From IMG/VR virus record IMGVR_UViG_3300046516_000964: a DNA stretch of 64,000 nucleotides; one strand, 5' to 3'. The position numbers and the translations under genes are program-made. Below the pieces are notes generated by a model that did not search any database, was not told where the DNA came from, and saw only the letters and a program-made list of their open reading frames with translations. Source of the stretch: a virus. Taxonomy: Duplodnaviria; Heunggongvirae; Uroviricota; Caudoviricetes. Shown here piece after piece: positions 5,783-40,611 of the stretch (position 1 is its first letter; the number at the start of each line of letters is the position of its first letter).

Positions 5783-8194
5783 TTATTCGTTTGAAGCGAC
5801 GTTACCGCCGCTCGTAAACCAGTCGGACGCCTGAGGGTTCGCGATAAAGCTGCGCTCAAGAACGTCCGGTGGTACGTGCATAGACCGACGGATACCCGAG
5901 CCACCGATCGAGAACCCCGTGTACTTGCCGGCAAGAACGTCCTGCCACACGTCATGGTCCTCAACGTGGACGCACATCACCCACGTCCCTTTCTTCACCA
6001 TCTCTTTCCCGTCCAGGGTGAAATCCACCGGTGCGATATAGGACTCCACCGGAACCACCCCGGGCTTGTCGCGGAAGAAACTCTTCGCCTGATGCTGCAG
6101 CTTCGTCACCGTTGCTTTCCCGCGAGCAACCTTCTTCAGATAACCGTGTGCGGCTTTCTCCACCTGGTCGGGAAGCATGAAATCGTCCTGACTGTCGAGA
6201 GCGTTCGGTTCGAGCACAACCCCGTAGACGAGCTGCTTGTACCCGTCAGCTTTATGAACACGGAGCTTCACGTTCGCGTTCATATACGCGACAGACAGGT
6301 CCTTCAACGGCTTGTTGCGATGCACCGACTGCAGCGTTGGTCCCATGCTGCCAACCGGAACTTCGCTCGTAGCAGCGGGTGTCATCGCGGCGAGAGTCCC
6401 CGCTGACGGCATCTCCGAGGAGCCCATCGGTGAGTCGCCCGCCGGCGGAGCACCAGCACCAGGAGCAAAGTCCTTGACGAGGCGTCCGCCGGCAAGGGCC
6501 TCCAACTCTTTCCACGAATGAGCTGCGTCAGTGTAAGCACCCGCGACGTTCGGGTTCAGCCAGCGGTAATCGCCGTCAGCGTCCTGCGCGAAATCAGCAG
6601 CCTGGACTTTCAGGATGTCGCCCTTCTTCGCTTTCATCCTGCTGCTGTTCGTGCGACCCACGTAGTGACCGTCACGGGTGACCATCCGGTACACGTTCCC
6701 TCCGTCTGGGTGGCGCAACACACCGTTCACGCGCAAATGCAGTATGGCGGCGTGCGCCTGTCCTTTCGTGACGACCTCCTTCACGCTCATCTTCTTGCCG
6801 GCGTCGATCTTGAACACCGTCGCCGGATCGATCTTGTCAGCCTCGATCGCAGACGTGTCGATCTTCGAACGCGGGCCCTTCCCGCCGATCCATCCTTGGG
6901 CGAGCTCGACGTTGCGCGAGTGAGTGACGAGCGCGATCGTTTTCCCGCCATCGGCCTGCTTGAGTAGTTTCTCCAACGCCGGCACGAACCTGCCCTTGTA
7001 CTCGTTGAAGGACTCACCACCATCAACGGGCTCATCGGCTTTCGTGGTCATGTACGGCGTCAGCTTCGGGATCACGTCAGCGGACGAATGCCCGGCGAAC
7101 GAACCAAGATTCCACGGCCGGTAGCTGCGATCAGCTTTCACGGAGGCACCGCACTCACGCGCAGCTATGTCCGCTGTCTGCTTCGCGCGCTTCAAATCGG
7201 ACGCGTAGATCTCCTCCACCCCAGCGTCCTTGAAGAACTTGCCGAGCTTCTTCGCCTGCACCTTGCCGGTGTTGTCGAGCGGAATATCTCTCCACCCTTG
7301 CACCACATCATGTGGCTGCCCCGGGCGGTTGTACCGCGTTTTCGCGTGCGAGACCATGTACAGGGAACCGTTCGCTTTCTGCACCTTGTCCCAGGCGCGT
7401 GAATCATGGAGCTCCCAACGCACAGCACGGGAGCGCTTCATGTGATCCGGGTCCCACCAGGCGGCAACCTCAACCCCGTCACCGTCAGGATCGTCGGGGT
7501 TCATCACCTTGCGCTCGCCGTTGATCTTCACATTCGCCTCGGAAGGGACCTCGTGCACGAAACCCTGGTAGATGCCTGACTGCCATTGCCCCACGTGCCG
7601 TCCTCGCGGCAGGCGGACGCCCATTTCCTCCTGCCACTCGCGCTTCGCGCCCACATAGGGATGTTCGCCATCGTTCAGGCACCCACCGGGAAACTCCCAG
7701 CAACCAGCCGCCGGGTCCTTCGCGTTGTTGCTCGCGCGCTGAATCATCAGGACTCTGCCTGTGTCCGCAGCACGAACAGCCATACCAGCGGCCGTTACGC
7801 CAGCCTTCCAAATGAACCCCTCCGGGTCCGGTTCCAAGGCTCCGAGAAGATCCCTCAGCCCCTCGGGTGTGTCGGGCGGGGCCGGTGCCGGCGCGGTGTA
7901 CATCGGCGCGATTGCCGGATCCTCCTTCGTGACTATTCCCTCCCAGGCGTCGCACGTGTCATCAGCACCCACGGGAGTGTCGTCAAACATCGTGCAAACA
8001 CCATGGTGGAACCAGTCACATGTTCCGCACGACACGTCACTAAACTCCGCTTCGCGCAAGTTCGCCCACCCGGGGATCTCCTTCTCGACGTGCTCTGGCA
8101 GCTTCCCCTCGTTGTCGAAGTGGTGCTCCTTAACCCAGTCATGCCCGAAACGGGCGTTCAGAAAGGCGCGCTGAGCTTGACTACGTGCGGGCAC
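5783..8194 (-). CDS. Multidomain virion protein: Cys-cluster N-terminus, NUDIX hydrolase, histidine-phosphatase (PGM-like) domain and XkdF-like prohead protease
   Basis: Perfect Nudix box GGCLNDGEHPYVGAKREWQEEMGV. Histidine-phosphatase-like segments VSHAKTRYN...GWRDIPL...IYASDLKRAKQTA...LVTHSRN. C-terminus LVYGVVLEPNALDSQDD...GTWV...GKYTGFSIGG matches the XkdF-type phage protease. GTG start. Confidence 0.75.
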   Translation of the reverse strand: MPARSQAQRAFLNARFGHDWVKEHHFDNEGKLPEHVEKEIPGWANLREAEFSDVSCGTCDWFHHGVCTMFDDTPVGADDTCDAWEGIVTKEDPAIAPMYTAPAPAPPDTPEGLRDLLGALEPDPEGFIWKAGVTAAGMAVRAADTGRVLMIQRASNNAKDPAAGCWEFPGGCLNDGEHPYVGAKREWQEEMGVRLPRGRHVGQWQSGIYQGFVHEVPSEANVKINGERKVMNPDDPDGDGVEVAAWWDPDHMKRSRAVRWELHDSRAWDKVQKANGSLYMVSHAKTRYNRPGQPHDVVQGWRDIPLDNTGKVQAKKLGKFFKDAGVEEIYASDLKRAKQTADIAARECGASVKADRSYRPWNLGSFAGHSSADVIPKLTPYMTTKADEPVDGGESFNEYKGRFVPALEKLLKQADGGKTIALVTHSRNVELAQGWIGGKGPRSKIDTSAIEADKIDPATVFKIDAGKKMSVKEVVTKGQAHAAILHLRVNGVLRHPDGGNVYRMVTRDGHYVGRTNSSRMKAKKGDILKVQAADFAQDADGDYRWLNPNVAGAYTDAAHSWKELEALAGGRLVKDFAPGAGAPPAGDSPMGSSEMPSAGTLAAMTPAATSEVPVGSMGPTLQSVHRNKPLKDLSVAYMNANVKLRVHKADGYKQLVYGVVLEPNALDSQDDFMLPDQVEKAAHGYLKKVARGKATVTKLQHQAKSFFRDKPGVVPVESYIAPVDFTLDGKEMVKKGTWVMCVHVEDHDVWQDVLAGKYTGFSIGGSGIRRSMHVPPDVLERSFIANPQASDWFTSGGNVASNE

Positions 8195-9815: not shown

Positions 9816-10601
9816 CTATCGGCAGCGGTGATGGCGTCTCATTTCATCGACGAGAATGCCTTTGTTTCGCTCCGCCCGCAGGAGCATGCTGTCGGCTTTC
9901 GTGGTGTAGTTGAGGAGGGTCTCGTTCACGCACGCGAACCGCGCTTTCCGACGGGTCAGGTCGATCCACATGTCCCAGTCCTCGTACCCGCCGCTGATAC
10001 CGGGCCAGCCGGCCATCGCTGGGTGGTACCCGCCGATCTCACGGAGAAGCTCGGTCCGCATCAAAGCACAGTAGAAGTACCTGTTCATCGTCCACAGGAG
10101 TTTCTCCGTCACATTCGCGAGAGGCATGTCGTAGCCCGGCATGTAGTCGCGGTTCCGTGGGGCATCCCCATGCTCCTGCAGTCCGACCAGGACAACGTCA
10201 GCACCCGCCTTGATCACCGGTAGGGTGAGCTCGATGTAGCGCGAGTCGATCCAGTCGTCGGAGTCGAGCGGGAGGAAGAACTCCCCTTTCGCGAGCATCA
10301 GAGCGGTGTTCCGCGCTGCCGGCAAACCCCTGTTGGTGATCTTGGTCGTGCGGATTAGAGGGGAGTACTCCGTCATGAGCACCGGGATATGGGGCTGCTC
10401 CGAACCGTCGTCGACGATGATGATCTCGCGCGGTTTAACGGTCTGGTCGAGCGCGGACTGGACCGCTCTCTCGATGGTCTCCTGCGACTCGTTGAAGTAC
10501 GGGATGCACACCGTGACGCCGTGCGCTCTCGCTTCATCCCGCTCCACGATGTGCTTGTACATCTCGCCGGTGACGAGAGGCTGGGTGGTGCTCATCCCCA
10601 C
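9816..10601 (-). CDS. Glycosyltransferase family 2
   Basis: VCIPYFNESQ...IIIVDDGSEQ and DSDD (DXD): canonical GT-A / GT2 N-terminal signature. Confidence 0.75.
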   Translation of the reverse strand: MGMSTTQPLVTGEMYKHIVERDEARAHGVTVCIPYFNESQETIERAVQSALDQTVKPREIIIVDDGSEQPHIPVLMTEYSPLIRTTKITNRGLPAARNTALMLAKGEFFLPLDSDDWIDSRYIELTLPVIKAGADVVLVGLQEHGDAPRNRDYMPGYDMPLANVTEKLLWTMNRYFYCALMRTELLREIGGYHPAMAGWPGISGGYEDWDMWIDLTRRKARFACVNETLLNYTTKADSMLLRAERNKGILVDEMRRHHRCR

Positions 10602-21162: not shown

Positions 21163-21859
21163 GAAACATCAGGAGGAGGAGCGGCGGAAAGCGTTGGAGC
21201 AGCGCGCTCGGCAGCTGGAGGAGTACAGGAAGAAGTTCATGGCGATGAAAATCCCGAGCCAGCCCTGGTCCTGGCAGGGCGGGTATTGGATATTGAGCGG
21301 GGGGGGTGGTGGTGGTGGTGGTGGTGGGCAGGGCGGTGGCGCGGCCTCGATCGTTAAGGCGTCTCTCGAGATGACGACCGCTCCGTTGCCGGAGCTCCCG
21401 TTGGTGTTCCAGACGGAGGTGGTGGTTGGGTGGAGGGCGTGGCACACCGGCTCGTTTTTGTCGAGGCACGGCGTGGAGACGACGGTGCTGATCCCGGTCG
21501 CTCCGGGCCACCGGATGCCGTTCTTCTACCCGCCGTTCCGTCGTTTCGAGGCGCTCTGCACGACCTCGCGTCATGAGGCACCGTTCCGGTCGTGCGCGTG
21601 CGGGGTGTGGGCGTTGAAGAACGAGGGTGATGTTTCCGCGGGAGCCGGGCACTATGGGCCGGAGGCGTGGGGCGAGGTGTCGTTGTGGGGACGCGTCCTG
21701 GAAACGAAGCTCGGTTACAGAGCGCAGTTCGCGTACCCGAAGTCTTTGCGGTGCGCGACCCCGGGGCTCGCTGAGGCGCTCAGTGCCACGTACGGGGTTC
21801 CGGCGGTTCACGACCGGAGCATCAACGAGATTTTCGATCGACCGGAGGGAGATGAATGA
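21143..21859 (+). CDS. Hypothetical Cys-motif protein (paralogue B) with a poly-Gly tract
   Basis: GTG at 21143 preceded by GGAGG (an alternative ATG is at 21239). RSCACGVWALKNEG...VSLWGRVLETKLGYRAQFAYP; (GGT)n encodes Gly10. The listed ORF starts at 20975 in Arg-rich sequence that is probably non-coding. Confidence 0.5.
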   Translation: MSQWGSRKHQEEERRKALEQRARQLEEYRKKFMAMKIPSQPWSWQGGYWILSGGGGGGGGGGQGGGAASIVKASLEMTTAPLPELPLVFQTEVVVGWRAWHTGSFLSRHGVETTVLIPVAPGHRMPFFYPPFRRFEALCTTSRHEAPFRSCACGVWALKNEGDVSAGAGHYGPEAWGEVSLWGRVLETKLGYRAQFAYPKSLRCATPGLAEALSATYGVPAVHDRSINEIFDRPEGDE

Positions 21860-30775: not shown

Positions 30776-31700
30776 GCTCTGGCTCATCCTCACCATCATC
30801 TTCGGTGTCATTGGCATAGGTGCTCTCGTCGTCGGTATGGGCAGCGCAGGTAGAGACAGGCCGGGGCCGTACGCTGTCTCAGCTCTCTGCGGCGTCGCCT
30901 GGTTCATCCTCACGCTCTTCCTCTGCATCCACACAGTCGGGCAGACCCAGGTCGGGGTCGTCTACAACTTCTCCGGCACGATCGCCGGAAAGAGGTCGCC
31001 GGGTGTTGTCTGGACGATGCCGTGGCAGCACATCAAGACGGAGAGCGTCGCGGTCACGAAGGAGCAGTTCGTCTTCGATCAACAGAACTCGGCGGTCTCG
31101 AAAGACCAGCAGCCGATCACCGCAACGATCGTCGTCAACTACCAGGTCTCTCCACAGGACGTGATCGACCTGTTCAAAACAGTGGGGACGAACTGGCAGG
31201 CGACGCTGCTCGACGGCCGCGTGCCGCAGGACTTCAAGGAAACGACCGCGCTGTTCACCTCTCCGCAGATCACGCTCAACCGTTCTCTGCTACACGACGA
31301 CGTGGTTAAACGTTTGAAGACGGAGATGTGCCCGAACACAACGGCGAAACCGTGGTGCGTGAGCATCGTCGATGTGTTCATCTCGAACGTTGGCTACTCG
31401 CAGGCGTACACGAACGCGATCGAGCAGAAGCAGGTCCAGGTGCAGCAGGCCGAGCAGGCGCAGGCGAAAGTCGCTCAGTCGCGTGCTGAAGCCGAGCAGA
31501 ACGTCGCGATCGCTCGCGGCAAGGCAGAGGCTGTTGTGCTCGCCGCGAAGGCTCAGGCGCAGTCTCTCGCGCTTAAGGGCAAGGCGCTGCGTGACAACCC
31601 GCAGATCCTGCAACTGGAAGCGATCGACAAGATCAACCCGAACGCGACGATCATCTGCCAGAGCAAGTGCCCGTCGTTCATCACCGCGGCCGGCAAGTAG
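30776..31700 (+). CDS. SPFH / band-7 (prohibitin / HflK-like) membrane protein
   Basis: N-terminal TM helices, an SPFH core (VGVVYNFSGTIAGKRSPGVVWTMPWQ...) and an Ala/Gln-rich coiled coil, AEQAQAKVAQSRAEAEQNVAIARGKAEA... Confidence 0.75.
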
Positions 31701-31702
31701 TC

Positions 31703-31716
31703 CGTAACTAGTTACG
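31703..31716. repeat. Palindrome CGTAACTAGTTACG
   Basis: 17 nt upstream of the ATG at 31734. Confidence 0.6.
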
Positions 31717-31733
31717 CTCTAAGAGAGGAGAAC

Positions 31734-32051
31734 ATGACCGCTTTCGACAGCAACGACCCGGACGAACACGATGAGCCAACTAGGCGCGGGCTGCGCGTTC
31801 GTATCGCACCGAACCTCCCGTCCGCGGACGAGCACGCACAGCAGATGCTCAGGATGCAGGCACGGCATCAGGGCCAGCCGCCGATCATCCCCGCTCGTGA
31901 TCAGGCGGTCGCGCCGACCGTGTGTGATGAGTGCGGCGAGCAGATGTGGGCTTCGATCATCTCGCGGAGAGACATCTGCTCGGTGTGCCGCGCAAAAGAG
32001 GAGACGACCCGGTCGACGATCCTCGGGCAGATCATGGACCGGTTTAGTTGA
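31734..32051 (+). CDS. Hypothetical zinc-ribbon protein
   Basis: CDECGEQ...CSVCRAKEE. Confidence 0.5.
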   Translation: MTAFDSNDPDEHDEPTRRGLRVRIAPNLPSADEHAQQMLRMQARHQGQPPIIPARDQAVAPTVCDECGEQMWASIISRRDICSVCRAKEETTRSTILGQIMDRFS

Positions 32052-32293
32052 CGAACGTTGCGGCGCACGAGAACATCGAGCGATCACTTGCGCGCGACCG
32101 GTGGTCGTTGACGGAGCGAGAGATAGAGATCATCGACCACGCCGCCAAAGGGCTCACGGCCGATGAGACAGGAATGTTGATGTTTCTATCAACGCCGACG
32201 GTGAAGTGGCATCGAAGGAACGCGACGGGGAAGCTTCGCGCCCGCAACCTCACGCACGCCGTATCACTGGCCCATCAACTCGGGATCATCTAA
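32048..32293 (+). CDS. LuxR/GerE-family HTH transcriptional regulator
   Basis: LTEREIEIIDHAAKGLTADETGMLMFLSTPTVKWHRRNATGKL matches the GerE-type HTH pattern; TTG start overlapping the upstream stop. Confidence 0.6.
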   Translation: MTNVAAHENIERSLARDRWSLTEREIEIIDHAAKGLTADETGMLMFLSTPTVKWHRRNATGKLRARNLTHAVSLAHQLGII

Positions 32294-32409
32294 TGAAGGG
32301 AGCTGTCGTGTTCTTCCTAGTCGTCTCGGCGATCGTCTTTCTTCTTGCGGCGTTCTGGTTTGTTGTGGCCTACGCGAAAGGAGGGAGTGATGAAGGAAGC
32401 GAACGGTGA
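32293..32409 (+). CDS. Small membrane peptide (38 aa)
   Basis: TAATGA junction with the upstream gene; MKGAVVFFLVVSAIVFLLAAFWFVVAYAKGG... Confidence 0.35.
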   Translation: MKGAVVFFLVVSAIVFLLAAFWFVVAYAKGGSDEGSER

Positions 32410-32857
32410 CCTGTGGGGAATGCGCGTCGACGCTGTATGCATCACCACAAACGGCGTCGTGGTTGGCAACGAGGCAGCGATGGGCGGCGGGTGCGCGCTC
32501 GAAGCACGACACATGTTCCCGGGTATCGCGCGAGAGCTCGGATCGCTGATCACAGCGCACGGAAACCATGTTTTCCATCTCGCCACTCCGCGTCACGGCT
32601 GGTACGACGGGGAGAACGGGGAAGAACACACAACAGAAGTGATCGCTTTCCCCGTTAAGCAACATTGGCGGCAAGCTGCCAACCTTGATCTGATCGAACA
32701 GTCCGCTGAGGAGCTGGTGAAACTCACCGAGGACTGGAGTTGGGAGTCGGTCGCGATCCCACGACCGGGGTGTGGTCTCGGTCGGCTCAAGTGGGAGGAA
32801 GTGAAACCACTGATCGAACCGATCCTGGACGACCGCTTCATCGTGGTGACGTTCTGA
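32390..32857 (+). CDS. Macro-domain (ADP-ribose-binding / processing) protein
   Basis: GDLWGMRVDAVCITTNGVVVGNEAAMGGGCALEA...HVFHLATP...VIAFPVKQ follows the macro-domain motif order (N-x6-GGG, ...H..P, AFP). RBS AAAGGAGGGA. Confidence 0.55.
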   Translation: MKEANGDLWGMRVDAVCITTNGVVVGNEAAMGGGCALEARHMFPGIARELGSLITAHGNHVFHLATPRHGWYDGENGEEHTTEVIAFPVKQHWRQAANLDLIEQSAEELVKLTEDWSWESVAIPRPGCGLGRLKWEEVKPLIEPILDDRFIVVTF

Positions 32858-33177
32858 TGGCCCGCCTGAACATCATCAACGGGGAGAAAACTACGGTCGA
32901 AGTGTTGCTATCTCGCCGGAACCTGCTCACGCTCCTGCAGAAACTCGAAATGCGTGGTTCGTACTGCGGGATCACGAACAACGACACGTTCGAGGACGGC
33001 GAGCCCACGACCGGCGTGGAGCTTGTCCTAATCGCCGAAGAGGATGAGCCACACTACGCCAGGAGAGAGCTAGGTCCCGGCGAGATGCACCCAACAACGG
33101 AGATGGTGATCCAGGCGCAAGGAGCGAAACCTCCGACGGAGATCATTCTTCGTCTTCCTTCTGTCCGCCAGGGTTGA
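32857..33177 (+). CDS. Hypothetical protein
   Basis: TGATG overlap with the upstream stop; 106 aa. Confidence 0.45.
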   Translation: MARLNIINGEKTTVEVLLSRRNLLTLLQKLEMRGSYCGITNNDTFEDGEPTTGVELVLIAEEDEPHYARRELGPGEMHPTTEMVIQAQGAKPPTEIILRLPSVRQG

Positions 33178-33589
33178 GCTCCAACTTAAAGTTCAGCACC
33201 CCCTCGCCGTCGCCGGCGAACTCGATCCGAGTGGGAATGTGGTACCGCTCTGGCATCCGTCGTTCAAGCAACCACTCAAGGTGCTTGGTGTCGTACTCCT
33301 TGATCACACCGACCATCTCACCGCGCTGGAATACGGGGCGTTCGTTCGGCTCAACGGCCCTGCGCATTGCCTCGTATTCCAGAGCATCGTTCATCATGCG
33401 GTACGCCTGCTCCAACATCATTTTGAACGTGGGCTCTGCTTTCGCTCGCTCTTTGACGACGTTCTCGTGAATGCCTGCAACATCACAGGCCTTGCCGAGA
33501 ATGCCGTATTCAGTCAGAAGAGCATCGAAGAACTTCTTCTCCCACGGTTCCGGCGAATAGCCGCCATCTTCGTAACTTGTTACGCTCAT
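33143..33589 (-). CDS. HTH DNA-binding protein (terminase small-subunit-like N-terminus)
   Basis: N-terminal helical, DNA-binding-like region (WEKKFFDALLTEYGILGKACDVAGIHENVV). Its start codons ATG AGC GTA ACA AGT TAC GAA are a palindrome copy. Confidence 0.45.
   Translation of the reverse strand: MSVTSYEDGGYSPEPWEKKFFDALLTEYGILGKACDVAGIHENVVKERAKAEPTFKMMLEQAYRMMNDALEYEAMRRAVEPNERPVFQRGEMVGVIKEYDTKHLEWLLERRMPERYHIPTRIEFAGDGEGVLNFKLELNPGGQKEDEE
33571..33584. repeat. Palindrome CGTAACTTGTTACG
   Basis: Embedded in the start of the 33143..33589 gene and the end of the ParB-like gene. Confidence 0.5.
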
Positions 33590-34530
33590 TTGTCGTGGTC
33601 GTATCGGAGGTACACCCCGTCGAGGTTCTGGAAGATCGTCAGCATCGAACCGCAGTTCGGGCAGGCGCTGTGACCAATGTCCTCCCGAGATGTAGAACGG
33701 ACAGCTGGTTTCACTTCGAACTCACGACCGCGACGGTCCACACGAATCTCCGGCTCACGTACGAGCTGAACTGATTTCGACTTCCCTGCTGCAACGACCT
33801 GATCTGTTGACGGCTGGTACTCCTGCTCGCGGCGGAGCTCCTCGCGAATCCGTCCGATCGTCGGGGCTGACACACCACAAGAGGTGGCGAGACTGCGATC
33901 GCTTTTCTGCCAGTTTGCGAGCAGTTCGCGGCGGACGATCTCGTGCTTCTGCTTCTGGGACATCTGCCGGCGGACCGTGTTGACCGCCAAAGCGATCTCA
34001 TGCTCCTGCTCCAACGTGAGCCCCTGGATGAAGATCGCTGGAACCTCAATATCGAGTTCTTGCGCGACGACGCAGCGATGCCGGCCGTCGATGATCGAAT
34101 GGTCGCCGATCAGTACAGGCGTCTGAATCCCATGCTCTTTGACGCTGTCTTTGAGGGAGTCGATCTCGTCACGCGACAAGGGGTAGACGTGATTGTCTCC
34201 GTGCGTCAGCATGATCTCCCGACGCAGTTCCGCCAGTCGATCCGAGACCCAGGATGGCGTCTGCCCTAGCTCGTTTGCGATCGTAGTCAGGTTGTAGCCA
34301 TCGAGCATCTCGTCCACTATTCTGAACTTGATCGCTTTGCCTCTCTCCGAGATCTTCGACCAGTCGATCTCCGACGGAGGTTTCCAAGTCGTCGAAGACG
34401 TAGTCGTTGATTCTTGATCCGTTCCGTCCGAGTATTCGCCTTGGTCCGACGTCGACGGCTCTTGCTGAGACGATCCAGCGTGCGTAGATGTCAAATCTGT
34501 CGGTCCTTTCCGGGTCGAAGCTTGACTCAA
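33586..34530 (-). CDS. ParB-like nuclease domain protein (start uncertain)
   Basis: ParB N-terminal domain motif PVLIGDHSIIDGRHRCVVAQELDIEVPAIFI, an HTH and a C-terminal CxxC...CPNC. The N-terminal ~70 aa of the listed ORF are S/T-rich with low GC3. Confidence 0.6.
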   Translation of the reverse strand: MSQASTRKGPTDLTSTHAGSSQQEPSTSDQGEYSDGTDQESTTTSSTTWKPPSEIDWSKISERGKAIKFRIVDEMLDGYNLTTIANELGQTPSWVSDRLAELRREIMLTHGDNHVYPLSRDEIDSLKDSVKEHGIQTPVLIGDHSIIDGRHRCVVAQELDIEVPAIFIQGLTLEQEHEIALAVNTVRRQMSQKQKHEIVRRELLANWQKSDRSLATSCGVSAPTIGRIREELRREQEYQPSTDQVVAAGKSKSVQLVREPEIRVDRRGREFEVKPAVRSTSREDIGHSACPNCGSMLTIFQNLDGVYLRYDHDK

Positions 34531-34705
34531 GCCCCCACAAGATAGCGACGAGCTCCATCAGGGAGTCATCGTAGAACTCGGGGCGAAGAAACATCCCCCA
34601 GCGCGCAAAAGCCTCGTCGAGATGCTTTCGACAGAAAGATTCAGCGTCGTGTACGGGCCCGCGGAACTGGGCCCCAACACTGAACGGACGCTGGTAGAGG
34701 CGCAT
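34169..34705 (-). CDS. Hypothetical protein overlapping the ParB-like gene in another frame
   Basis: The first ~75 aa look protein-like with high GC3; the downstream part degenerates where the ParB frame becomes coding-like. Confidence 0.3.
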   Translation of the reverse strand: MRLYQRPFSVGAQFRGPVHDAESFCRKHLDEAFARWGMFLRPEFYDDSLMELVAILWGLESSFDPERTDRFDIYARWIVSARAVDVGPRRILGRNGSRINDYVFDDLETSVGDRLVEDLGERQSDQVQNSGRDARWLQPDYDRKRARADAILGLGSTGGTASGDHADARRQSRLPLVA

Positions 34706-34738
34706 CGGCCGCAGGATAGCGTCTGTGGTTGACGTACG

Positions 34739-34772
34739 CCTAGCTATATCTACCCGAAGAGGGGTATACTGT
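34739..34772 (+). promoter_or_regulatory. SigA-like promoter P3
   Basis: -35 TAGCTA (34741-34746), 18-nt spacer, -10 ggGTATACT (34765-34770). Confidence 0.5.
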
Positions 34773-34881
34773 AGTTAGCGGGCCGAATGCTTCTATCCAA
34801 AGCCGTGGGGCGGCGCATGGTGCGCGGGGAGAACCCGCGACAGGGTTGTTTCTCCTTCCCTTAGGAAACAGAGCCGCCCCA

Positions 34882-34895
34882 CGTAACTCGTTACG
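34882..34895. repeat. Palindrome CGTAACTCGTTACG
   Basis: Lies in the P3 leader, 20 nt upstream of the ATG at 34916. Confidence 0.6.
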
Positions 34896-34915
34896 GACGC
34901 TAAAGAAGGAGAGCG

Positions 34916-35164
34916 ATGAGTGACGAACGCCGTGAGCAGATGGTCAGAGCCGCCGCGCACGCTCGCAAAGCGCATGAGGAGAATGCCAGGAGGTATCACG
35001 AGACTCACACGTACATCCATCTCTCGATCAAGAACGAAGTGAGGGATGCTCTGACAGCGGAAGCGAGTAAACGTGGGATTACACGAGCAGAGCTGATACG
35101 CGAAGCGATCGACGCGCACGTGAAGACATTTCGTAAACCAGTCAAACGAGGAGGATGGTCATGA
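34916..35164 (+). CDS. Ribbon-helix-helix DNA-binding protein
   Basis: THTYIHLSIKNEVRDALTAEASKRGITRAELIREAIDAHV is an RHH signature. Confidence 0.5.
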   Translation: MSDERREQMVRAAAHARKAHEENARRYHETHTYIHLSIKNEVRDALTAEASKRGITRAELIREAIDAHVKTFRKPVKRGGWS

Positions 35165-35364
35165 GTAAGGTGGTGGAAGGATTCATGTTCGAACCTCCGA
35201 TCCCGAGTGACGAGCCCGCGCGGGAGGGGACTGTGTGTCAGATCGTCGAGAGAGAGGAGAGCAACAACACTCTCGAAACAGGGCCGGCGTTCCTAGTTCG
35301 ATTCGGGGATGGGTTCGAGATGGAGGCGTACTCTGCGGAACTACGTCCGTGGTACGCGACGTAG
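35155..35364 (+). CDS. Hypothetical protein
   Basis: 69 aa; ATGA overlap with the upstream stop. Confidence 0.45.
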   Translation: MVMSKVVEGFMFEPPIPSDEPAREGTVCQIVEREESNNTLETGPAFLVRFGDGFEMEAYSAELRPWYAT

Positions 35365-35547
35365 ATGACGAAACGGGAAACAGATCTCTGTCTCCGCATC
35401 ACGTGGGATGACGAACTCACGGACCATCCGACCGGGTGGGAGTGGCAGGAGCTCGTGAACGGGCCTTTCGAGGGCGCTCAGGACTCTCAGGTGTCGGTGG
35501 TCTCGTTCACTGATGAAGACGAGCGCGGCGACCCAGTCCTCGTCTAA
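35365..35547 (+). CDS. Hypothetical acidic protein
   Basis: 60 aa; TAGATG junction with the upstream gene. Confidence 0.4.
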   Translation: MTKRETDLCLRITWDDELTDHPTGWEWQELVNGPFEGAQDSQVSVVSFTDEDERGDPVLV

Positions 35548-35771
35548 TGGGAGCACCACAAAAAGAAACTCGGGTAACTCAGCGAGCGCGGAGAGGAATC
35601 ACCGCGAAGGGGACTTCCACGTCCGTCTATCTGCTGCCCGGTGACGAAGAACAACTGAAGATCATTCAGGACGAACTCGGATCGAGTATGTCAGATGCAA
35701 TCCGTACCTCAATCCGTGTGTACGCCGCGATCATCACTCAGATGAAGCGGACAAGACCACCGCGTAACTAG
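35547..35771 (+). CDS. RHH-like DNA-binding protein
   Basis: TSVYLLPGDEEQLKIIQDELGSSMSDAIRTSIRVYA. Confidence 0.45.
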   Translation: MGAPQKETRVTQRARRGITAKGTSTSVYLLPGDEEQLKIIQDELGSSMSDAIRTSIRVYAAIITQMKRTRPPRN

Positions 35772-35776
35772 TTACG
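35763..35776. repeat. Palindrome CGTAACTAGTTACG
   Basis: Contains the TAG stop of the upstream gene; 24 nt upstream of the ATG at 35801. Confidence 0.6.
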
Positions 35777-35800
35777 CGTCTAAAAGAGAGGAGATCGACA

Positions 35801-36571
35801 ATGCACGTGTCCAGAAAAGCTGGGCTCCGATTCGGCTCCCCCGCACTCAACCCCGAGGAACGGGACGTTGTGCAAGTGGGCCTCGCAGGAGCGGTGTCTT
35901 CGAAGGACAAGAAGTTCCGCACCATGCACGAAGGGTGCGGAGGCACGATCAAGGAACCGAAAACGTGCTCGAAGTGCGAGAAAACCGTCGAGCAGGAGGA
36001 CCTCGTCTCCGGGTACGAGTACGCGAAAGACGAGTTCATCGTCTTCACGCGACCTGAGCTCGACGCGCTCGACGTGGAGAAGACGCCGTTCATCGACGTG
36101 ACGAAGTTCGTTCTCTACGAGGAGCTCGACCTGACGATGCTCGCGAGCCAGTATTACCTTGTTCCCGACAAGGTGGTTCCTGGAAGGTACGGGGTGCTGT
36201 ATCAGGTGCTCACCACGATGAGAGCGGCCGGGATCGGGTCAACGACCATCTGGGGGAAAGAGCATCCGATCGCGGTCTACCCTCACGGCGGCGTGCTGAT
36301 GCTCGCGACCTTGAACCTGCACGAGGACCTCGTCGAGCCTGATTTCACGGCACCGGTACCGTCGAAGGCGGCGCTGGCGGAGTTCAAGCCTCGGGTCCTG
36401 GCCCTAATGGGACATCTGGACCCGGAGGACCTGGAGTCGGAGTCCCGCCGGCGTAAGAACGATCTGATCGCAGCCAGATCGGATGGGCCCACGACCGACC
36501 CTCCGAACCTGGTGGAGGAGCTGAAGAAGACGGTGAAGGCGCGAAGGCCGAAGGCGAAGGCGAAGGCGTGA
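35801..36571 (+). CDS. ku: Ku-like DNA end-binding protein (NHEJ)
   Basis: Aligns to bacterial Ku (FRTMHEGCGGTIKEPKTCSKCEKTVEQEDLVSGYEYAKDEFIVFTRPELDAL against Mtb Ku FHQVHAKDNGRIRYKRVCEACGEVV...); Lys-rich tail RRPKAKAKA as in mycobacterial Ku. Confidence 0.8.
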   Translation: MHVSRKAGLRFGSPALNPEERDVVQVGLAGAVSSKDKKFRTMHEGCGGTIKEPKTCSKCEKTVEQEDLVSGYEYAKDEFIVFTRPELDALDVEKTPFIDVTKFVLYEELDLTMLASQYYLVPDKVVPGRYGVLYQVLTTMRAAGIGSTTIWGKEHPIAVYPHGGVLMLATLNLHEDLVEPDFTAPVPSKAALAEFKPRVLALMGHLDPEDLESESRRRKNDLIAARSDGPTTDPPNLVEELKKTVKARRPKAKAKA

Positions 36572-36572
36572 C

Positions 36573-36770
36573 ATGAAAAAAAAGGCGAGGGATCTCGTTC
36601 CTGGAGATGTGATCGCTGTTTCGGAGAAACATCCGCATACAGCCTTTGCGTTTGGCTCAGGATGGAAAGCTGAGGTTCTCGAAATACATGAAACAATCGA
36701 TGTCGTATTCATCGGTCATGAAGTTCTCAGCATGCGTCCTGATGACCAAGTGGAGGTGGTCGAGCCATGA
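36573..36770 (+). CDS. Hypothetical protein
   Basis: 65 aa; starts 2 nt after the ku stop. Confidence 0.45.
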   Translation: MKKKARDLVPGDVIAVSEKHPHTAFAFGSGWKAEVLEIHETIDVVFIGHEVLSMRPDDQVEVVEP

Positions 36771-37198
36771 CCTCATCCTGGGAGGATCTAATCAAGAGGC
36801 CCTACAAGCGCTGGTACCAGTTCGGCCTGGGCTCGCCGAAGGTTCTCTACAGGCGATTCCAGAGCAAGCATTACTGGATCGGCCGTCCCATCTGGCGAAC
36901 GAAGATGTCGTGGCAGCGCGTCGCCAGGGGCTACTCCGATGAGGACTGCTGGGGTCTCGACCATCATCTCGCGAGAGTGATCGTCGGTGGTGTCCAGAAC
37001 CTCCGGAAGTGGCAGACCGGGTATCCGTCCGAGTTCGACTCCTGGGAGGATTGGGACGTGATCCTCGCGCAGATCGAGGAGGGCTTCCAGGCGTGGTGGG
37101 ACGAGGGAGGGTACTTCCACGAACGCCCAGACCTGGAAGCGAAGTTCACTCGGGGCATGGATCTGCTCGGTGAGTGGTTCGGCGCTCTCTGGGATTAG
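36767..37198 (+). CDS. Hypothetical Trp-rich protein
   Basis: 143 aa; ATGA overlap with the upstream stop. Confidence 0.5.
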   Translation: MTSSWEDLIKRPYKRWYQFGLGSPKVLYRRFQSKHYWIGRPIWRTKMSWQRVARGYSDEDCWGLDHHLARVIVGGVQNLRKWQTGYPSEFDSWEDWDVILAQIEEGFQAWWDEGGYFHERPDLEAKFTRGMDLLGEWFGALWD

Positions 37199-37207
37199 CA
37201 TGAGGTT

Positions 37208-37278
37208 GGGTCGGTGGCTCAGTGGTGAGCGTGGGCCTTTTAAGCCCGACGGTGCAGGTTCGACTCCTGCCCGGCCCA
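37208..37278 (+). tRNA. tRNA-Lys(TTT): tRNA-Lys (anticodon TTT)
   Basis: Cloverleaf GGGTCGG / CCGGCCC acceptor (one G-U pair), D-arm GCTC-AGTGGT-GAGC, anticodon stem TGGGC / GCCCG with loop CTTTTAA, T-arm GCAGG-TTCGACT-CCTGC, discriminator A. The 163-aa antisense ORF across it is spurious. Confidence 0.75.
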
Positions 37279-37296
37279 TGAAAGGGGTGATGATCG

Positions 37297-37557
37297 GTGC
37301 CGATCACTGATCCTGAGAGAAAGCGAGAAGTCACGAAGGCGTGGCGTGAGAAGAAGATGAAAGAGGGGTACGGAAAAGCCCTGTGGCGGCGGCGAGCTCA
37401 CATCTACAAGAACGAAGAGACACTGAGGATGGGATTGGAAAACGTTCTTCACTCGGCCCGTGAAGCCTCAGAAACACCCACATGGATCATCCAACGTTTG
37501 GAGCGACTCCTGGAGTCCGCGCCGGCAGTGGGAAAACCGGCCGACTATATGGAGTAA
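37297..37557 (+). CDS. Hypothetical basic protein
   Basis: 86 aa; GTG start; its TAA stop lies inside a palindrome copy. Confidence 0.45.
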   Translation: MPITDPERKREVTKAWREKKMKEGYGKALWRRRAHIYKNEETLRMGLENVLHSAREASETPTWIIQRLERLLESAPAVGKPADYME

Positions 37558-37566
37558 CTCGTTACG
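37553..37566. repeat. Palindrome variant AGTAACTCGTTACG
   Basis: 9 nt upstream of the GTG at 37576. Confidence 0.5.
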
Positions 37567-37575
37567 GAGGCTGAT

Positions 37576-38004
37576 GTGAAAATCGAGAGTTTCGAAGGGG
37601 AATACCGGTTTCTCTCCAACTTCTACGAGTCCGTGATCGAACGCGAAGGGATTAGGTTCGCGACAGCGGAAGCCGCATATGCAGCCGCCAAAACTGACGA
37701 TCCGACTTGGAAAGCCCGGATCGCTCTCGCTTCATCCCCTAACGCGGCTAAGAAGCTCGGCAGGGGTGCTCCTTTGCGCCCAACGTGGGAGTCGGAGAAG
37801 CTGGTAGTGATGGAGGAGATCCTTCGAATGAAGTTCGCTGACGAGCGGCTGCGAGACAAACTCACTTCGACTGCTCCGGTGGAGCTGGTCGAGGGGAACT
37901 GGTGGGGCGACACGTTCTGGGGTGTCTGTAAGGGAGTTGGGGAAAACCATCTCGGGCGTTTGCTGATGAAAATCAGGGACGAAGGGAGGCGATTTGCCGC
38001 TTAA
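37576..38004 (+). CDS. NADAR-domain (YbiA-like, DUF1768) protein
   Basis: FEGEYRFLSNFY...FATAEAAYAAAK...SSPNAAKKLGRG...RPTWESEKLVVMEEILRMKF...APVELVEG...WGDTFWG...GENHLGRLLMKIR matches E. coli YbiA block for block. Confidence 0.8.
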   Translation: MKIESFEGEYRFLSNFYESVIEREGIRFATAEAAYAAAKTDDPTWKARIALASSPNAAKKLGRGAPLRPTWESEKLVVMEEILRMKFADERLRDKLTSTAPVELVEGNWWGDTFWGVCKGVGENHLGRLLMKIRDEGRRFAA

Positions 38005-38524
38005 AATGGTGATTTCAGGTTTGCAGGATGGGGCGGACATCGCCGGCCTGCGAGCAGCAAAAGCGTGCGGGATCGACACGTTCGGCTATATGCCGAAAGG
38101 GTTCCGTACATTGCACGGCCCGCTCGACTACGAGACGGTGCGGGAGTTCAACGCGGTCGAAACCGAGAGCACCGGATACCCGCTGCGCACCAGGAAGAAC
38201 GTGCAGATGGCGGACGCAACGATCAGGTTGGCGCACAACTGGCGATCCGCCGGTGAGCGCGCGACCCTGAGGTTCATCGAGCAGTACAAGAAGCCTCATT
38301 TCGATGTTCCTCTCGCGCGGAACGACAACGACAGTTGGTCTGTGGGGGGGAAAGGGCTCGGGTATCAGTACTCGTACGCAAAAACGGTGGCCCAGTGGCT
38401 CGTCGATCGTCAGGTGATGGTGGTGAACGTCGCTGGAAACGGGGACGAGTCGATCGAATCGTTCGTGGAGTGGTTCCTCACCTTGGTGTTCTCAGCGGAA
38501 GCGAAGCTGGAAGGTGAGTCGTGA
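37994..38524 (+). CDS. SLOG-superfamily (YpsA / 'MoCo-carrier'-like) nucleotide-binding protein
   Basis: N-terminal VISGLQDGADIAGLRAAKACGIDTFGYMPKG resembles the ISGGQTGxDxAAL...G motif of SLOG / YpsA-type Rossmann proteins; 11-nt overlap with the NADAR gene. Confidence 0.5.
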   Translation: MPLKMVISGLQDGADIAGLRAAKACGIDTFGYMPKGFRTLHGPLDYETVREFNAVETESTGYPLRTRKNVQMADATIRLAHNWRSAGERATLRFIEQYKKPHFDVPLARNDNDSWSVGGKGLGYQYSYAKTVAQWLVDRQVMVVNVAGNGDESIESFVEWFLTLVFSAEAKLEGES

Positions 38525-38922
38525 TTCTCAGATGGTTCGGGTCGAATCCGTGGTCGGACAGCCTAGAACGACAGAACCGCGTGGAGACACCGATGGGGGA
38601 GCGGTGCGTCGAGTGCAACACCCCGATTCGGCCAACGGATCGCGGGGTTCTGACAGCCTGTAGCGAACGCATTTTCGGCGGGTTCGACCTTGACATTGGT
38701 GACCGTGTGATGCGAGTATGTGGGTATCACCTGTCGTGCTGGTTGGAGAGCGTGGTGGGTGGTGTCCCGTCGTTCGAGGTGCTGTCGCGGCTCCCGACCG
38801 GGAACGAGAGGGCCCGATCAACGACCGGAGAAGAGTCGGTGAGCGTGGTCGGGACTGGTTGGCACACAAGTGAGGATCTCGATGAACAAATCAACGAGGG
38901 AGTTTCTGAGGCGGGAGATTGA
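38521..38922 (+). CDS. Hypothetical Cys-containing protein
   Basis: GTGA overlap with the upstream stop; CVECNTP...C...CGYHLSC. Confidence 0.45.
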   Translation: MILRWFGSNPWSDSLERQNRVETPMGERCVECNTPIRPTDRGVLTACSERIFGGFDLDIGDRVMRVCGYHLSCWLESVVGGVPSFEVLSRLPTGNERARSTTGEESVSVVGTGWHTSEDLDEQINEGVSEAGD

Positions 38923-39088
38923 CGCCCGCCGAAGGGGGGTAGTGAAGCGCACCGATTCGGCTAACCGCGGGCTTATGCGTGACCTGGATCGGATGTGCGG
39001 GGGCTCTGAAACAAAGGGGGTAGTTCGTGACATCGGTAGAGACAACAAGAGTGGAGCGGGGGCCACCGTCCTCGTCGAGGGTGCCTAA
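38882..39088 (+). CDS. Hypothetical basic protein
   Basis: Start MNKSTREFL, internal to the listed ORF 38870; overlaps the upstream gene by 41 nt. Confidence 0.35.
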   Translation: MNKSTREFLRREIDARRRGVVKRTDSANRGLMRDLDRMCGGSETKGVVRDIGRDNKSGAGATVLVEGA

Positions 39089-39101
39089 GAAGGATCCTTC
39101 G

Positions 39102-39242
39102 ATGAGAAAGGACGGGAAGTGCTTCGTGTGTCAGAAGCCCCTACCGGGGGTTGCGGTCACGCACGGGGACCCGTTCTGTTCGACGCTTTGCGCGAGATCG
39201 TTCTACGAGCTGGACGTTCGTGCCAGCCCGACCGTCTCGTAG
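39102..39242 (+). CDS. Small zinc-ribbon protein (46 aa)
   Basis: MRKDGKCFVCQKPLPGVAVTHGDPFCSTLCARSFY; RBS AAGAAGGA. Confidence 0.35.
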   Translation: MRKDGKCFVCQKPLPGVAVTHGDPFCSTLCARSFYELDVRASPTVS

Positions 39243-39247
39243 CTTCG

Positions 39248-39261
39248 CGTAACAAGTTACG
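39248..39261. repeat. Palindrome CGTAACAAGTTACG
   Basis: 15 nt upstream of the GTG at 39277. Confidence 0.6.
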
Positions 39262-39276
39262 TCTAGAGAATAGGAG

Positions 39277-40611
39277 GTGTGGGTCTTGCAGATAGAGCAG
39301 GAGACCATGCTCGAAGGGTGGTGGCGCGAATCGAAGAAGAGCTTCGTGTACCCGCCCACCGAGTTTTTCTCGCGTCTCGTGAACCAGCCGAACAGGTACA
39401 CGACAGAATGGACGGATCTCCTGGAACAGGCTGGTGGGGACGAGAAACGAGCAATAGCGATGTGGCATCGGACGAACCCGGGGTTCGAGGTAAGAACGGG
39501 GCCGGAAGGGCAGTTGACGGTTCGCAGCATCGGACGCGGGGTGCAGCCGATCATTGAGCTCGCCCGAGTGGTGTGGCCGGCGTCGCGGAAGCTGGAACCG
39601 TTCGTACTTCTGAACGGGGATGGGTTCGAGGACCGGCTGCTGCAGAACGTGCAGGCGCAACTTCGAGCCCGGGTGCAGAACAGCTTCCCGAGAGTAGACA
39701 TGCGAATGGTGATCCCGTACGCGGCGATGAACGCGGCCCGCTTGGACCCATCCACGATCGAGCCGATCCACGTCAGCACAGACAGACAGGTCTCGAACCG
39801 TGTTGTGGTGCCGAAACCCAGCGAGGCGCTCATGGCCGCGAACAGGATCTCGGGGAAGAACGTTACGGGGACCGGACAAGAGTTCCTGTGGCGCGGCCGT
39901 CTGTACAGGTTCAGGTCCTGGTCCTGGCAGCCGCACCAAGCCCTGGAGATCATGCACCAACCCGATTTCGCTCCGATGGCTGCGTGGCATCAAATCGAGG
40001 ATCTCTCTCAGGAGACCTACTTGGTCGTGGAGCGCATGCACCGCCTGGGCGAGTCCGTGTTCTGGGCTGTGGACGGGAACGGGGAACGCCACCGGTGGCT
40101 GTCGGGGTTCGATCAGTTGGAGAACCCAGCCATGTACTTTCTCGCGCAGCTACCGGACAAGGGCGGGGTGCGTTACATCACCCACGCGATCCGCTTGCTG
40201 GCACCCCCGATCGTGCACAAAGCGCGAAAAGAGGGGAGGCGTGTTTTCCGCCAGGGGGACATCTTTGCCGTTGAAACAGACATGACCAGTGACGACCTGC
40301 GTGACCACCGTGCGTACTACCGCGCGGAGCTGTTCGGCACCGGGAATGGCGGGCTGTCCCCCTTCGCGAGCACGGACGCCGGGTACCGGCTCCGACAGAA
40401 ACTCATGATCTACGGGACCGGGCACACAGCCACGGAAGTGATCCCAACCCCGAGAGGAACGTTTGTGCGAGGGACGATGTTCCACGATCCGATCCTGGAG
40501 AACATTCGTGCGAACAGACCTCCGGAACACCGGCAGGTGGAGATGGACTCGAATGCGTGGTTCCTCGCGGTGCGCAACACGGTGCCGCGTTTGTCAGACA
40601 ACAACAGCTAG
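39277..40611 (+). CDS. Hypothetical protein (444 aa)
   Basis: RBS AATAGGAGG; consistently high GC3. The 311-aa antisense ORF is spurious. Confidence 0.6.
   Translation: MWVLQIEQETMLEGWWRESKKSFVYPPTEFFSRLVNQPNRYTTEWTDLLEQAGGDEKRAIAMWHRTNPGFEVRTGPEGQLTVRSIGRGVQPIIELARVVWPASRKLEPFVLLNGDGFEDRLLQNVQAQLRARVQNSFPRVDMRMVIPYAAMNAARLDPSTIEPIHVSTDRQVSNRVVVPKPSEALMAANRISGKNVTGTGQEFLWRGRLYRFRSWSWQPHQALEIMHQPDFAPMAAWHQIEDLSQETYLVVERMHRLGESVFWAVDGNGERHRWLSGFDQLENPAMYFLAQLPDKGGVRYITHAIRLLAPPIVHKARKEGRRVFRQGDIFAVETDMTSDDLRDHRAYYRAELFGTGNGGLSPFASTDAGYRLRQKLMIYGTGHTATEVIPTPRGTFVRGTMFHDPILENIRANRPPEHRQVEMDSNAWFLAVRNTVPRLSDNNS

Follow-up and report, generated by a model that had tools for sequence, protein, structure and literature searches.

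An AdfM-like macrodomain, a YbiA-type NADAR protein and a circularly permuted YpsA protein encoded by separate accessory genes in the early region of one tailed phage

Introduction

Two kinds of phage enzyme directed against DarTG systems have been characterised, separately, in the last few years. Phage NADARs acting against DarTG1 were published in 2024; the one nearest to the present case is NADAR-Bas32, the product of bas32_0066 of phage IrisVonRoten (Bas32), which neutralises DarT1 and restores sensitive phages on DarTG1, not on DarTG2 (PMC11257639). Phage DarG2-like macrodomains acting against DarTG2 were published in 2026, among them AdfM (gp104 of phage PhiKZ), which removes DarT2 marks and is a validated anti-DarTG2 enzyme (PMC13309987). 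A network described in 2022 by Iyer, Burroughs, Anand, de Souza and Aravind showed that domains of the Macro, NADAR, SLOG and Nudix families co-occur in DNA viruses above chance, with neighbourhoods that combine SLOG with Macro and NADAR, in early regions or among head genes (PMC9503650). Here we analyse a stretch of 64,000 nucleotides from an uncultured tailed phage, IMG/VR record IMGVR_UViG_3300046516_000964 (this whole stretch is referred to below as the window), whose early region carries a gene for each of the first three of these families:

32390..32857, + strand: stand-alone DarG2-type macrodomain, AdfM-like, 155 aa (profile matches given below)
37576..38004, + strand: stand-alone NADAR of Glu type (YbiA family), 142 aa; PF08719, E 3.6e-21, 76.5 bits (cutoff 35.1)
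37994..38524, + strand: circularly permuted YpsA (cpYpsA) of the SLOG superfamily, 176 aa from a TTG start; PF12694, E 1.5e-22, 80.3 bits (cutoff 26.2)

An earlier reading of this DNA, made from the sequence alone, had named the same three families, and hidden Markov model (HMM) searches placed all three above curated thresholds. The combination of macro, NADAR and SLOG is already published as a general phage pattern (PMC9503650), and the locus is a clean new example of it. The reading that we favour, at slightly better than even confidence, is that the macro protein is an orphan enzyme acting on DarT2-type marks and the NADAR protein an orphan enzyme acting on DarT1-type marks, that the three genes are independent of one another, and that the SLOG protein would act on a soluble derivative of NAD or ADP-ribose. 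What the analysis gave directly is the family of each protein, the conservation of residues at aligned active-site positions, homology with validated enzymes, the fold, the linkage of the genes and their occurrence among relatives; the enzymatic activities, the host's DarT targets and the ligand of the SLOG protein are what we infer from these.

The macro protein

The sequence-only reading had placed a macro domain behind a LuxR-type regulator and a 38-aa membrane peptide, and both the generic Macro profile PF01661 (E 8.4e-7, 29.4 bits, cutoff 22) and the DarG profiles bear this out. The matches to the DarG N-terminal macrodomain of NCBIfam (NF048014, 2.5e-22, profile positions 2-137 of 338) and to the PADLOC DarG profile (9.8e-22) are the telling ones, as their E-values are some 15 orders of magnitude better than that of the generic Macro profile; phrog_335 was matched at 6.9e-25. 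Among solved structures, the macrodomains of DarG from Thermus aquaticus and Mycobacterium tuberculosis came first together with a DarTG fusion, and human TARG1 came next; profile comparison with the DarG macrodomains of PDB entries 5m31 and 5m3i gave 2e-18 and 3e-19. Residues N21 (in ITTN) and K90 (in FPVK) align with N22 and K80 of the Thermus aquaticus DarG2, which appear as n32 and k90 in the 5m31 chain, whose numbering is offset by 10 residues; N22 and K80 have been named as active-site residues of DarG2 (PMC13309987, PMC11543638). In an alignment of 44 homologues, all of them short stand-alone proteins, N21 is invariant and K90 is at least 90% conserved.

Compared with PhiKZ gp104, the protein is 26% identical over 151 residues (E 9e-10; hhalign 99.1%), and the active-site Asn and Lys of the two coincide in the alignment. 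The resemblance to AdfM and to the DarG2 macrodomains (PDB 5M31, 5M3E, 5M3I) thus comprises the active-site Asn and Lys (N21/K90 here, N23/K78 in PhiKZ) and the motifs FP(T/V)K..W and PxxGCGxGGL, to which AdfM adds the same format, a stand-alone phage macrodomain of approximately 155-160 aa. The differences from AdfM are the low identity and the setting, since PhiKZ is a nucleus-forming jumbo phage, whereas the phage analysed here is one of 78 kb in which no phage-nucleus genes were found. DarG2 differs in another way: it has a C-terminal DarT-binding domain and a neighbouring DarT, whereas the macro protein has no C-terminal DarT-binding domain and no ART/DarT domain was found in the window. 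It also falls short of the DarG antitoxin equivalog, scoring 79.6 bits against the NF048014 cutoff of 250. Lacking both the part that binds the toxin and an adjacent DarT, the macro protein is classified, as far as sequence can tell, as an orphan DarG2-type macrodomain and not as a DarG antitoxin. AdfB of ICP1 was also considered as its nearest analogue and rejected, because AdfB is described as probably a direct DarT binder and has little identity to DarG.

The NADAR protein

The open reading frame at 37576..38004 starts with GTG, with GGAGG about 3 nt upstream, and its earlier identification as a NADAR (YbiA/DUF1768) protein holds, the PF08719 match being above the cutoff and phrog_1017 matching at 1.1e-41. 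Among solved structures the best match was 2b3w (E. coli YbiA, 2.3e-17), followed by 8bau, the NADAR of Phytophthora nicotianae (Pn; 2.4e-8). Residues E32, K39, K59/K60, R63, W71, E106, D112 and W115 align with Pn NADAR E43, K50, K75, R79, W89, E125, D130 and W133, for which ADP-ribose-contacting or catalytic roles have been described (PMC11543638). NADAR subfamilies are distinguished by a residue in the last strand, which is Glu in YbiA, Asp in BC4488/DarG1 and His in T4 gp30.3 (PMC11125620). In the protein described here this strand reads ELVEG, with E106 aligned with the Glu of YbiA LVEH and with Pn E125. Since the diagnostic residue is E106, the sequence assigns the protein to the Glu type, the YbiA family in the broad sense, and neither to the DarT1-linked Asp type nor to the His type of T4 gp30.3 (AdfN), which is the more distant relative.

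The alignments with YbiA and Pfam begin at residues 7-9 of 142, leaving no N-terminal extension, whereas the DarT1-linked NADARs of DarG1 carry one. With no basic N-terminal extension, and with no DarT gene found in the window plus the adjoining 9.4 kb, the protein does not have the features of a DarG1 antitoxin. Its closest validated relative is instead NADAR-Bas32, to which it is 47% identical over its full length (E 2e-42); both are stand-alone NADARs of about 140-150 aa encoded in a phage early region. Homologues were found in 457 of 50,697 cultured-phage records, those of T5-like phages included. The T5-like gene of the validated NADAR-Bas32 is often annotated as 'GTP cyclohydrolase II' or 'swarming motility protein'. 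Every NADAR subtype that has been assayed to date can hydrolyse guanine-ADP-ribose in vitro (PMC11125620, PMC11833690), and cytidine-ADP-ribose is also a substrate of YbiA-type enzymes (PMC12945103).

The SLOG protein

The third gene belongs to the cpYpsA family (PF12694; structure 3IMK from Syntrophus aciditrophicus), formerly named 'MoCo_carrier', which lies in the YpsA-like clade of the SLOG superfamily. The SLOG-superfamily Rossmann protein that had been proposed to overlap the NADAR stop is therefore present, with the motif VISGLQDGADIAGLRAA as it had been written. The protein keeps all 16 columns that are invariant among 22 homologues and lie in the motifs SGxQxGxD, YxxRTxxN, GE..T and NxAGN. 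Its structure was predicted with very high confidence and has a SLOG-type Rossmann-like fold, related to that of the ThsA SLOG sensor of 3'cADPR and to that of the LOG N-glycosidases; the model portrays a compact, putatively nucleotide-binding Rossmann-like protein with a strictly conserved polar pocket. Viral YpsA-like SLOG domains have been predicted to sense or cleave ADP-ribose derivatives (PMC9503650; also PMC6459960), and a literature search on the cpYpsA/PF12694 family found no experiment reporting an activity or a ligand.

The junction with the NADAR gene depends on the start codon. The NADAR stop (TAA) occupies 38002-38004, so that a TTG start at 37994 gives an overlap of 11 nt, while the gene caller on the 78,353-bp public contig of this phage chose an ATG at 38006 (172 aa), one base past the stop. 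The TTG, which lies four codons before the ATG, is the better start because the closest relative has it at the corresponding place, there with an ideal 6-nt spacing from GGGAGG. Whichever start holds, the linkage of the two genes is tight.

A scan of IMG/VR with the single SLOG protein gave no confirmed relative, and an alignment-based scan succeeded. A different form of the domain was seen in IAS virus, a crAss-like phage (NC_049978.1; 1700-4213 of the stretch labelled L180), where cpYpsA occupies residues 268-415 of an 837-aa protein annotated as 'molybdenum carrier'. That gene lies directly upstream of a giant RNA polymerase gene, a context unlike that of the stand-alone form.

Gene arrangement and relatives

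The genes that surround the three and serve as landmarks in the comparison with relatives are the following:

32048..32293, + strand: LuxR/GerE-type HTH regulator, 81 aa; PF00196, E 4.3e-13, 49.1 bits (cutoff 23.5)
32293..32409, + strand: hydrophobic, single-transmembrane peptide of 38 aa, MKGAVVFFLVVSAIVFLLAAFWFVVAYAKGG... (from translation; gene called on the public contig at 4288-4404)
32857..33177, + strand: 106-aa protein, no assigned function (weak phrog_2702 match only)
33143-34530, - strand: pair of genes, one small-terminase-like HTH and one ParB-like (profile searches)
37207..37279, + strand: tRNA-Lys, anticodon UUU; ARAGORN, and Rfam RF00005 at 64.4 bits
37297..37557, + strand: 86-aa protein, no assigned function (sub-threshold wHTH match in Pfam)
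38521..38922, + strand: Cys-rich protein, GTG start, 133 aa (109 aa from the internal ATG of the gene caller)

The early region extends over 28.8-54 kb and consists mostly of small genes. Within it the macro, NADAR and SLOG genes are split over two rightward gene strings with the leftward pair between them. The end of the first string comprises the LuxR/GerE gene, the 38-aa membrane peptide, the macro gene and the 106-aa gene, all overlapping or abutting and followed by a hairpin; the second comprises a ribbon-helix-helix (RHH) regulator, Ku, tRNA-Lys(UUU), the 86-aa gene, NADAR, SLOG and the Cys-rich open reading frame.

Relatives were compared only in the stretches read, for example about 12 kb for two SLOG relatives and 20 kb of the early region of a 73-kb relative (L094), and what follows applies to these stretches. 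In the closest relative (L001), whose SLOG protein is 61% identical, the gene order is the 106-aa homologue, the 86-aa homologue, SLOG, a 123-aa gene and the homologue of the Cys-rich frame, and neither NADAR, tRNA nor macro was found. SLOG there directly follows the homologue of the 86-aa gene, which is the gene preceding NADAR in the window, and the 106-aa homologue lies two genes upstream of SLOG. The 86-aa protein itself is 52% identical to its counterpart (L001 396-587, tblastn). In two further relatives, with SLOG proteins 53% and 44% identical, SLOG is the first gene after a divergent ParB-like gene and the sole one of the three within about 12 kb; the loci L002-L007 have SLOG only. The 73-kb relative L094 shares Ku, a PD-(D/E)XK nuclease, a methylase, RusA and a 441-aa protein with the window and carries a macro gene 61% identical that lies elsewhere, and no NADAR and no SLOG gene were found in its 20 kb. 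The nearest long-contig relative of the NADAR gene (L095) is a different phage, with NADAR alone.

The NADAR-SLOG pair is missing in L001, L002-L007, L014/L015, L094 and L095 and was present only in near-identical copies of the same phage. The sequence-only reading had described a scattered toolkit with NADAR and SLOG as an overlapping pair, and had proposed checking whether the pair is conserved in related phages. Neither a coordinated toolkit nor a dedicated pair is upheld in this lineage. The relatives examined do not retain the pair, and each carries one of the three genes, at shifting places, so that in this lineage macro, NADAR and SLOG have been gained, lost and moved one at a time and are not one system. 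The interpretation of NADAR and SLOG as a conserved operon is rejected because the closest relative has no NADAR between the same flanking genes; the junction is a recent juxtaposition. The accessory-gene content of the early region turns over quickly, and close relatives that differ gene by gene form a natural experiment with ready comparisons for host range. Related phages (L002, L005 and L094) have genes for a dual-specificity phosphatase (DSPc), a metallophosphatase and DUF6745 in the equivalent early region, with DUF4406, which we take to be a nucleoside deoxyribosyltransferase-like family, added in L094; the window lacks these.

The wider association of cpYpsA with NADAR and macro

The neighbourhoods of cpYpsA were surveyed more broadly by scanning 5 kb on each side of 80 IMG/VR cpYpsA loci with HMMs made from the sets of homologues. 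Of the 80 loci, 7 have NADAR near cpYpsA and 9 have macro, which makes 15 distinct loci as one has both, and every such neighbour lies on the SLOG strand. Among 80 bacterial cpYpsA loci, three have a NADAR or macro neighbour within that distance and on that strand; examples are SLOG followed by NADAR in Zavarzinella formosa and macro followed by SLOG in a metagenome-assembled genome (MAG) of Bacteroides. Base rates per cultured-phage record are about 0.9% for NADAR and 0.24% for the macro clade of the window, from which NADAR and macro appear enriched near cpYpsA by roughly one order of magnitude, a rough figure, as the HMM and tblastn thresholds are not equivalent. The enrichment matches the statement on co-occurrence by Iyer et al. 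(PMC9503650). Unbiased clustering of cpYpsA neighbours found no single constant partner, in an output partly polluted by spurious open reading frames from high-GC genomes.

In cultured phages cpYpsA is rare (15 records). Virus Rctr197k has both a SLOG gene and the same type of macro gene. In Vibrio phage RYC (AP014858.1 51930-52930) an overlapping pair consists of NADAR followed by a cpYpsA-like gene, the order seen in the window. The RYC NADAR (Pfam 1.3e-22), mislabelled 'GTP cyclohydrolase II', is 39% identical to the window NADAR. The cpYpsA-like gene overlaps it by 13 nt and matches profile positions 44-125 only, and its product appears to lack the N-terminal SGGQTGAD motif. A convergent NADAR-SLOG pair is seen in RYC and in a further locus (L089), and in reverse order in Zavarzinella formosa.

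The virion fusion protein and the search for ADP-ribosyltransferases

The fourth family of the published network is represented outside the early region by a single gene:

5783..8194, - strand: 803-aa fusion of NUDIX, His_Phos_1 (branch 1) and a C-terminal XkdF-type prohead protease; PF00293 1.6e-14, PF00300 5.9e-30, PF14550 6e-29

The NUDIX and histidine phosphatase domains that had been assigned to a virion-associated gene were both found in this fusion. It stands one small gene from the portal, in the order portal, 58-aa gene, 803-aa fusion, 390-aa gene. Because NUDIX and phosphatase are fused to a prohead protease, the arrangement suggests that they may be loaded into the procapsid and released by cleavage, which fits the published 'head-packaged' pattern.

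All four families of the network of Iyer et al. are accordingly present in this phage, as stand-alone early genes and, for Nudix, among the head-morphogenesis genes, and a SLOG of the YpsA-like clade adjoins NADAR as in that network. The difference is that the three early genes are unfused and not kept as a block. Searches of the window and of the adjoining 9.4 kb (Pfam, 84 further open reading frames; precomputed contig annotations) gave no ART, Sir2, TIR or NAD-salvage domain.

Proposed functions and alternative explanations

These data lead us to propose a model in which three independently acquired accessory genes of the early region would act separately and not as one system. The macro protein would hydrolyse the ADP-ribose-thymine bond in single-stranded phage DNA and so undo DarT2-type modification, as AdfM does. 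The NADAR protein would release ADP-ribose that is attached to guanine, and possibly to cytosine as well, at the exocyclic amine in DNA or RNA, undoing marks of the DarT1 or the pierisin/ScARP/YarT type, as NADAR-Bas32 does, and the two enzymes jointly would cover both known DarT base specificities. Our best guess for the SLOG protein is that its target, to be bound or cleaved, may be some soluble adenine-ribose compound of NAD or ADP-ribose origin, be it a signal of immunity or the ADP-ribose that macro and NADAR set free; its translational linkage to NADAR in this phage stems solely from the recent juxtaposition. If the predictions hold, one phage would possess hydrolases for both DarT chemistries, thymine-linked and guanine-linked, and would show stacking of orphan antitoxin-like enzymes that have so far been characterised apart; we met no report of one phage with both AdfM-type and NADAR enzymes, and no search was aimed at that. 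The layered counter-defence that the sequence-only reading had put forward survives in part: homology to AdfM and NADAR-Bas32 strengthens its anti-ADP-ribosylation side, while a role against immunity that consumes NAD or signals through it is not borne out and rests only on the SLOG family prediction.

A more far-reaching proposal concerns the SLOG protein itself. It might represent a new class of phage counter-defence protein, which would cut an immune messenger derived from ADP-ribose (such as the cyclic ADP-ribose isomers or His-ADPR of Thoeris) as an N-glycosidase or soak it up as a sponge, or else would assist NADAR and macro by removing the ADP-ribose that they set free; in that case SLOG would be the more persistent gene, with NADAR and macro as add-ons. 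Of the related lineages examined in this phage group, more contain SLOG than contain NADAR or macro. We advance this proposal tentatively and think it doubtful as it stands. If true, it would provide a function for the whole PF12694 family, which is found in phages, giant viruses and many bacteria. Being small, very confidently predicted and a recurrent neighbour of ADP-ribose hydrolases, the SLOG protein is a tractable candidate for ligand screening.

Several points weigh against the model. Cell protection by NADARs is specific where activity in vitro is general: E. coli YbiA and the T4 NADAR hydrolyse guanine-ADP-ribose, yet gave no DarT1 rescue in one study, and activity is therefore no guarantee of protection (PMC11125620). 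The basic N-terminal extension of DarT1-linked NADARs, absent here, is thought to bind single-stranded DNA (PMC11543638). The macro protein shares only 26% identity with AdfM. The NADAR protein also scores 69.9 bits against TIGR02464, a riboflavin N-glycosidase model, just below the cutoff of 73.7, which makes a riboflavin-type metabolic role borderline on sequence grounds. Finally, it has been argued that phage Macro, NADAR, SLOG and Nudix proteins target mainly soluble ADP-ribose derivatives and not DNA (PMC9503650).

The last argument, due to Iyer, Burroughs and Aravind, leads to the alternative that survives best. According to it, macro, NADAR, SLOG and the virion NUDIX/phosphatase would divide between them the breakdown of NAD-derived immune molecules, such as the cyclic ADP-ribose isomers of Thoeris/TIR systems, ADP-ribose-1''-phosphate and NAADP-like signals, with macro acting on substituents of the distal ribose, NADAR and SLOG on N-glycosidic bonds, and NUDIX on the pyrophosphate. 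It was proposed explicitly for such a phage domain set with early-region and head-packaged placement (PMC9503650), and all four domain types do occur in this one phage; the enrichment of NADAR and macro genes beside cpYpsA and the kinship of the SLOG fold with the ThsA sensor of 3'cADPR and the LOG N-glycosidases point the same way. The two hydrolases themselves argue for nucleic acid as the substrate, since the macro protein groups with DarG and TARG1, a branch in which the validated members from bacteria and phages have ADP-ribose on DNA as their substrate (PMC13309987), and the nearest validated relative of the NADAR protein acts on DarT1-modified DNA (PMC11257639). Nor are the three genes co-inherited in this lineage, and a literature search found no experiment in which a phage SLOG, NADAR or DarG-type macro protein degraded an immune signal. 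We regard this explanation as unlikely to be the right one for the locus as a whole.

A housekeeping role is improbable. The NADAR protein would in this case be a YbiA-like glycosidase of reactive riboflavin intermediates, SLOG a LOG-like phosphoribohydrolase or an enzyme of the nucleotide pool, and macro a means of disposing of ADP-ribose-1''-phosphate or O-acetyl-ADP-ribose, with none of them directed against the immunity of the host. The structure match to YbiA and the TIGR02464 score agree with this, although that score is under the cutoff and no riboflavin genes occur in the 73 kb examined. Large-phage cpYpsA genes often lie among genes for gyrase-like proteins, DNA polymerase, thymidylate-synthase-like proteins and aminotransferases. 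Public labels such as 'riboflavin biosynthesis protein', 'GTP cyclohydrolase II' and 'phosphatase' would also fit, but annotation names are transfers and not tests, and the validated NADAR-Bas32 carries such labels itself. The three genes moreover show the patchy presence typical of accessory genes when close relatives are compared. That macro and NADAR instead limit collateral modification of phage DNA, RNA and proteins by an ADP-ribosyltransferase of the phage's own (compare T4 Alt, ModA and ModB) is very improbable, for although phage ADP-ribosyltransferases and head-packaged versions of them are common (PMC9503650) and about 5 kb of the genome of about 78 kb lies outside the examined part, the open reading frames of the window and the 9.4 kb adjoining its start yielded no ART, Sir2 or related domain.

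The tRNA-Lys genes

The sequence-only reading had noted the NADAR-SLOG pair next to a tRNA-Lys; a link between them is not upheld by the comparison. The tRNA-Lys(UUU) at 37207-37279 was absent from all relatives and from the other NADAR/SLOG loci checked, and a functional tie to NADAR and SLOG is rejected for that reason; the tRNAs near the NADAR/cpYpsA pair of Vibrio phage RYC are for other amino acids. AAA accounts for 21-35% of the Lys codons of the phage, and this codon usage suffices to explain the presence of the tRNA.

ARAGORN called a second tRNA-Lys(UUU) at 21419-21515 (+ strand), 97 nt long with the anticodon at position 39, and Rfam at its gathering threshold found no tRNA there. 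GC skew around the site is exceptionally high (0.244 at 20-22 kb). The call is probably false, or else reflects a tRNA that is degenerate or carries an intron.

The phage genome and neighbouring genes

Pfam searches identified portal, terminase, prohead protease and collagen-like fibre genes in the window, as expected of a tailed phage, and the base composition is high in GC, at about 60%. A nucleotide search of the cultured-phage collection with 32000-39000 gave no match, and the phage is absent from that collection. This same sequence is also found in metagenome assemblies, as a contig of 78.3-78.5 kb, circularly permuted with respect to the window; on the 78,353-bp public contig, window position 1 maps beyond the end and wraps round. 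It follows that the genome either closes into a circle on assembly or is terminally redundant, and the permutation indicates that it is probably complete at about 78.3 kb. Together, the 64-kb window and the 9.4 kb beyond its start cover about 73 of the approximately 78 kb.

In the first string the LuxR/GerE gene stands upstream of the macro gene, and its match spans PF00196 profile positions 2-57 of 57. This gene, with a TTG start that overlaps the stop of the upstream gene, was missed by automated calling on the public contig. The end of the 38-aa membrane peptide gene overlaps the macro start by 20 nt, the start of the 106-aa gene shares one base with the macro stop, and a terminator-like hairpin lies at 33135-33154, at the 3' end of the 106-aa gene. 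In a scan of 31500-39400 for promoters and terminators, the number of sites was not above that in shuffled sequence.

In the second string the GTG start of the Cys-rich open reading frame overlaps the SLOG stop by 4 nt. The Cys-rich protein has no Pfam match, and homologues are found in L001, L002 and L094 at differing positions. About 360 bp further downstream lies the gene of the 441-aa protein (39286-40611, + strand), which gave no match in Pfam, NCBIfam or PADLOC and is conserved at 43% identity in L094.

Hints on the host conflict. The nearest cellular homologues of the SLOG protein are overwhelmingly from Planctomycetota, especially Gemmataceae (Zavarzinella, Gemmata, Frigoriglobus). The window also contains a Ku gene and an open reading frame that matches the Rpf-like 'Transglycosylas' domain PF06737, both of which are more often seen in actinobacterial phages.

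Glycosyltransferase genes form a cluster beside the portal, amid the structural genes, at 9816-11620 (- strand) and at further places in 9.8-16.5 kb, with three open reading frames matching family 2 and one matching family 6. Further glycosyltransferase-like and WbqC-like genes lie just outside the window start, and the gene content of the cluster suggests that the virions may be glycosylated.

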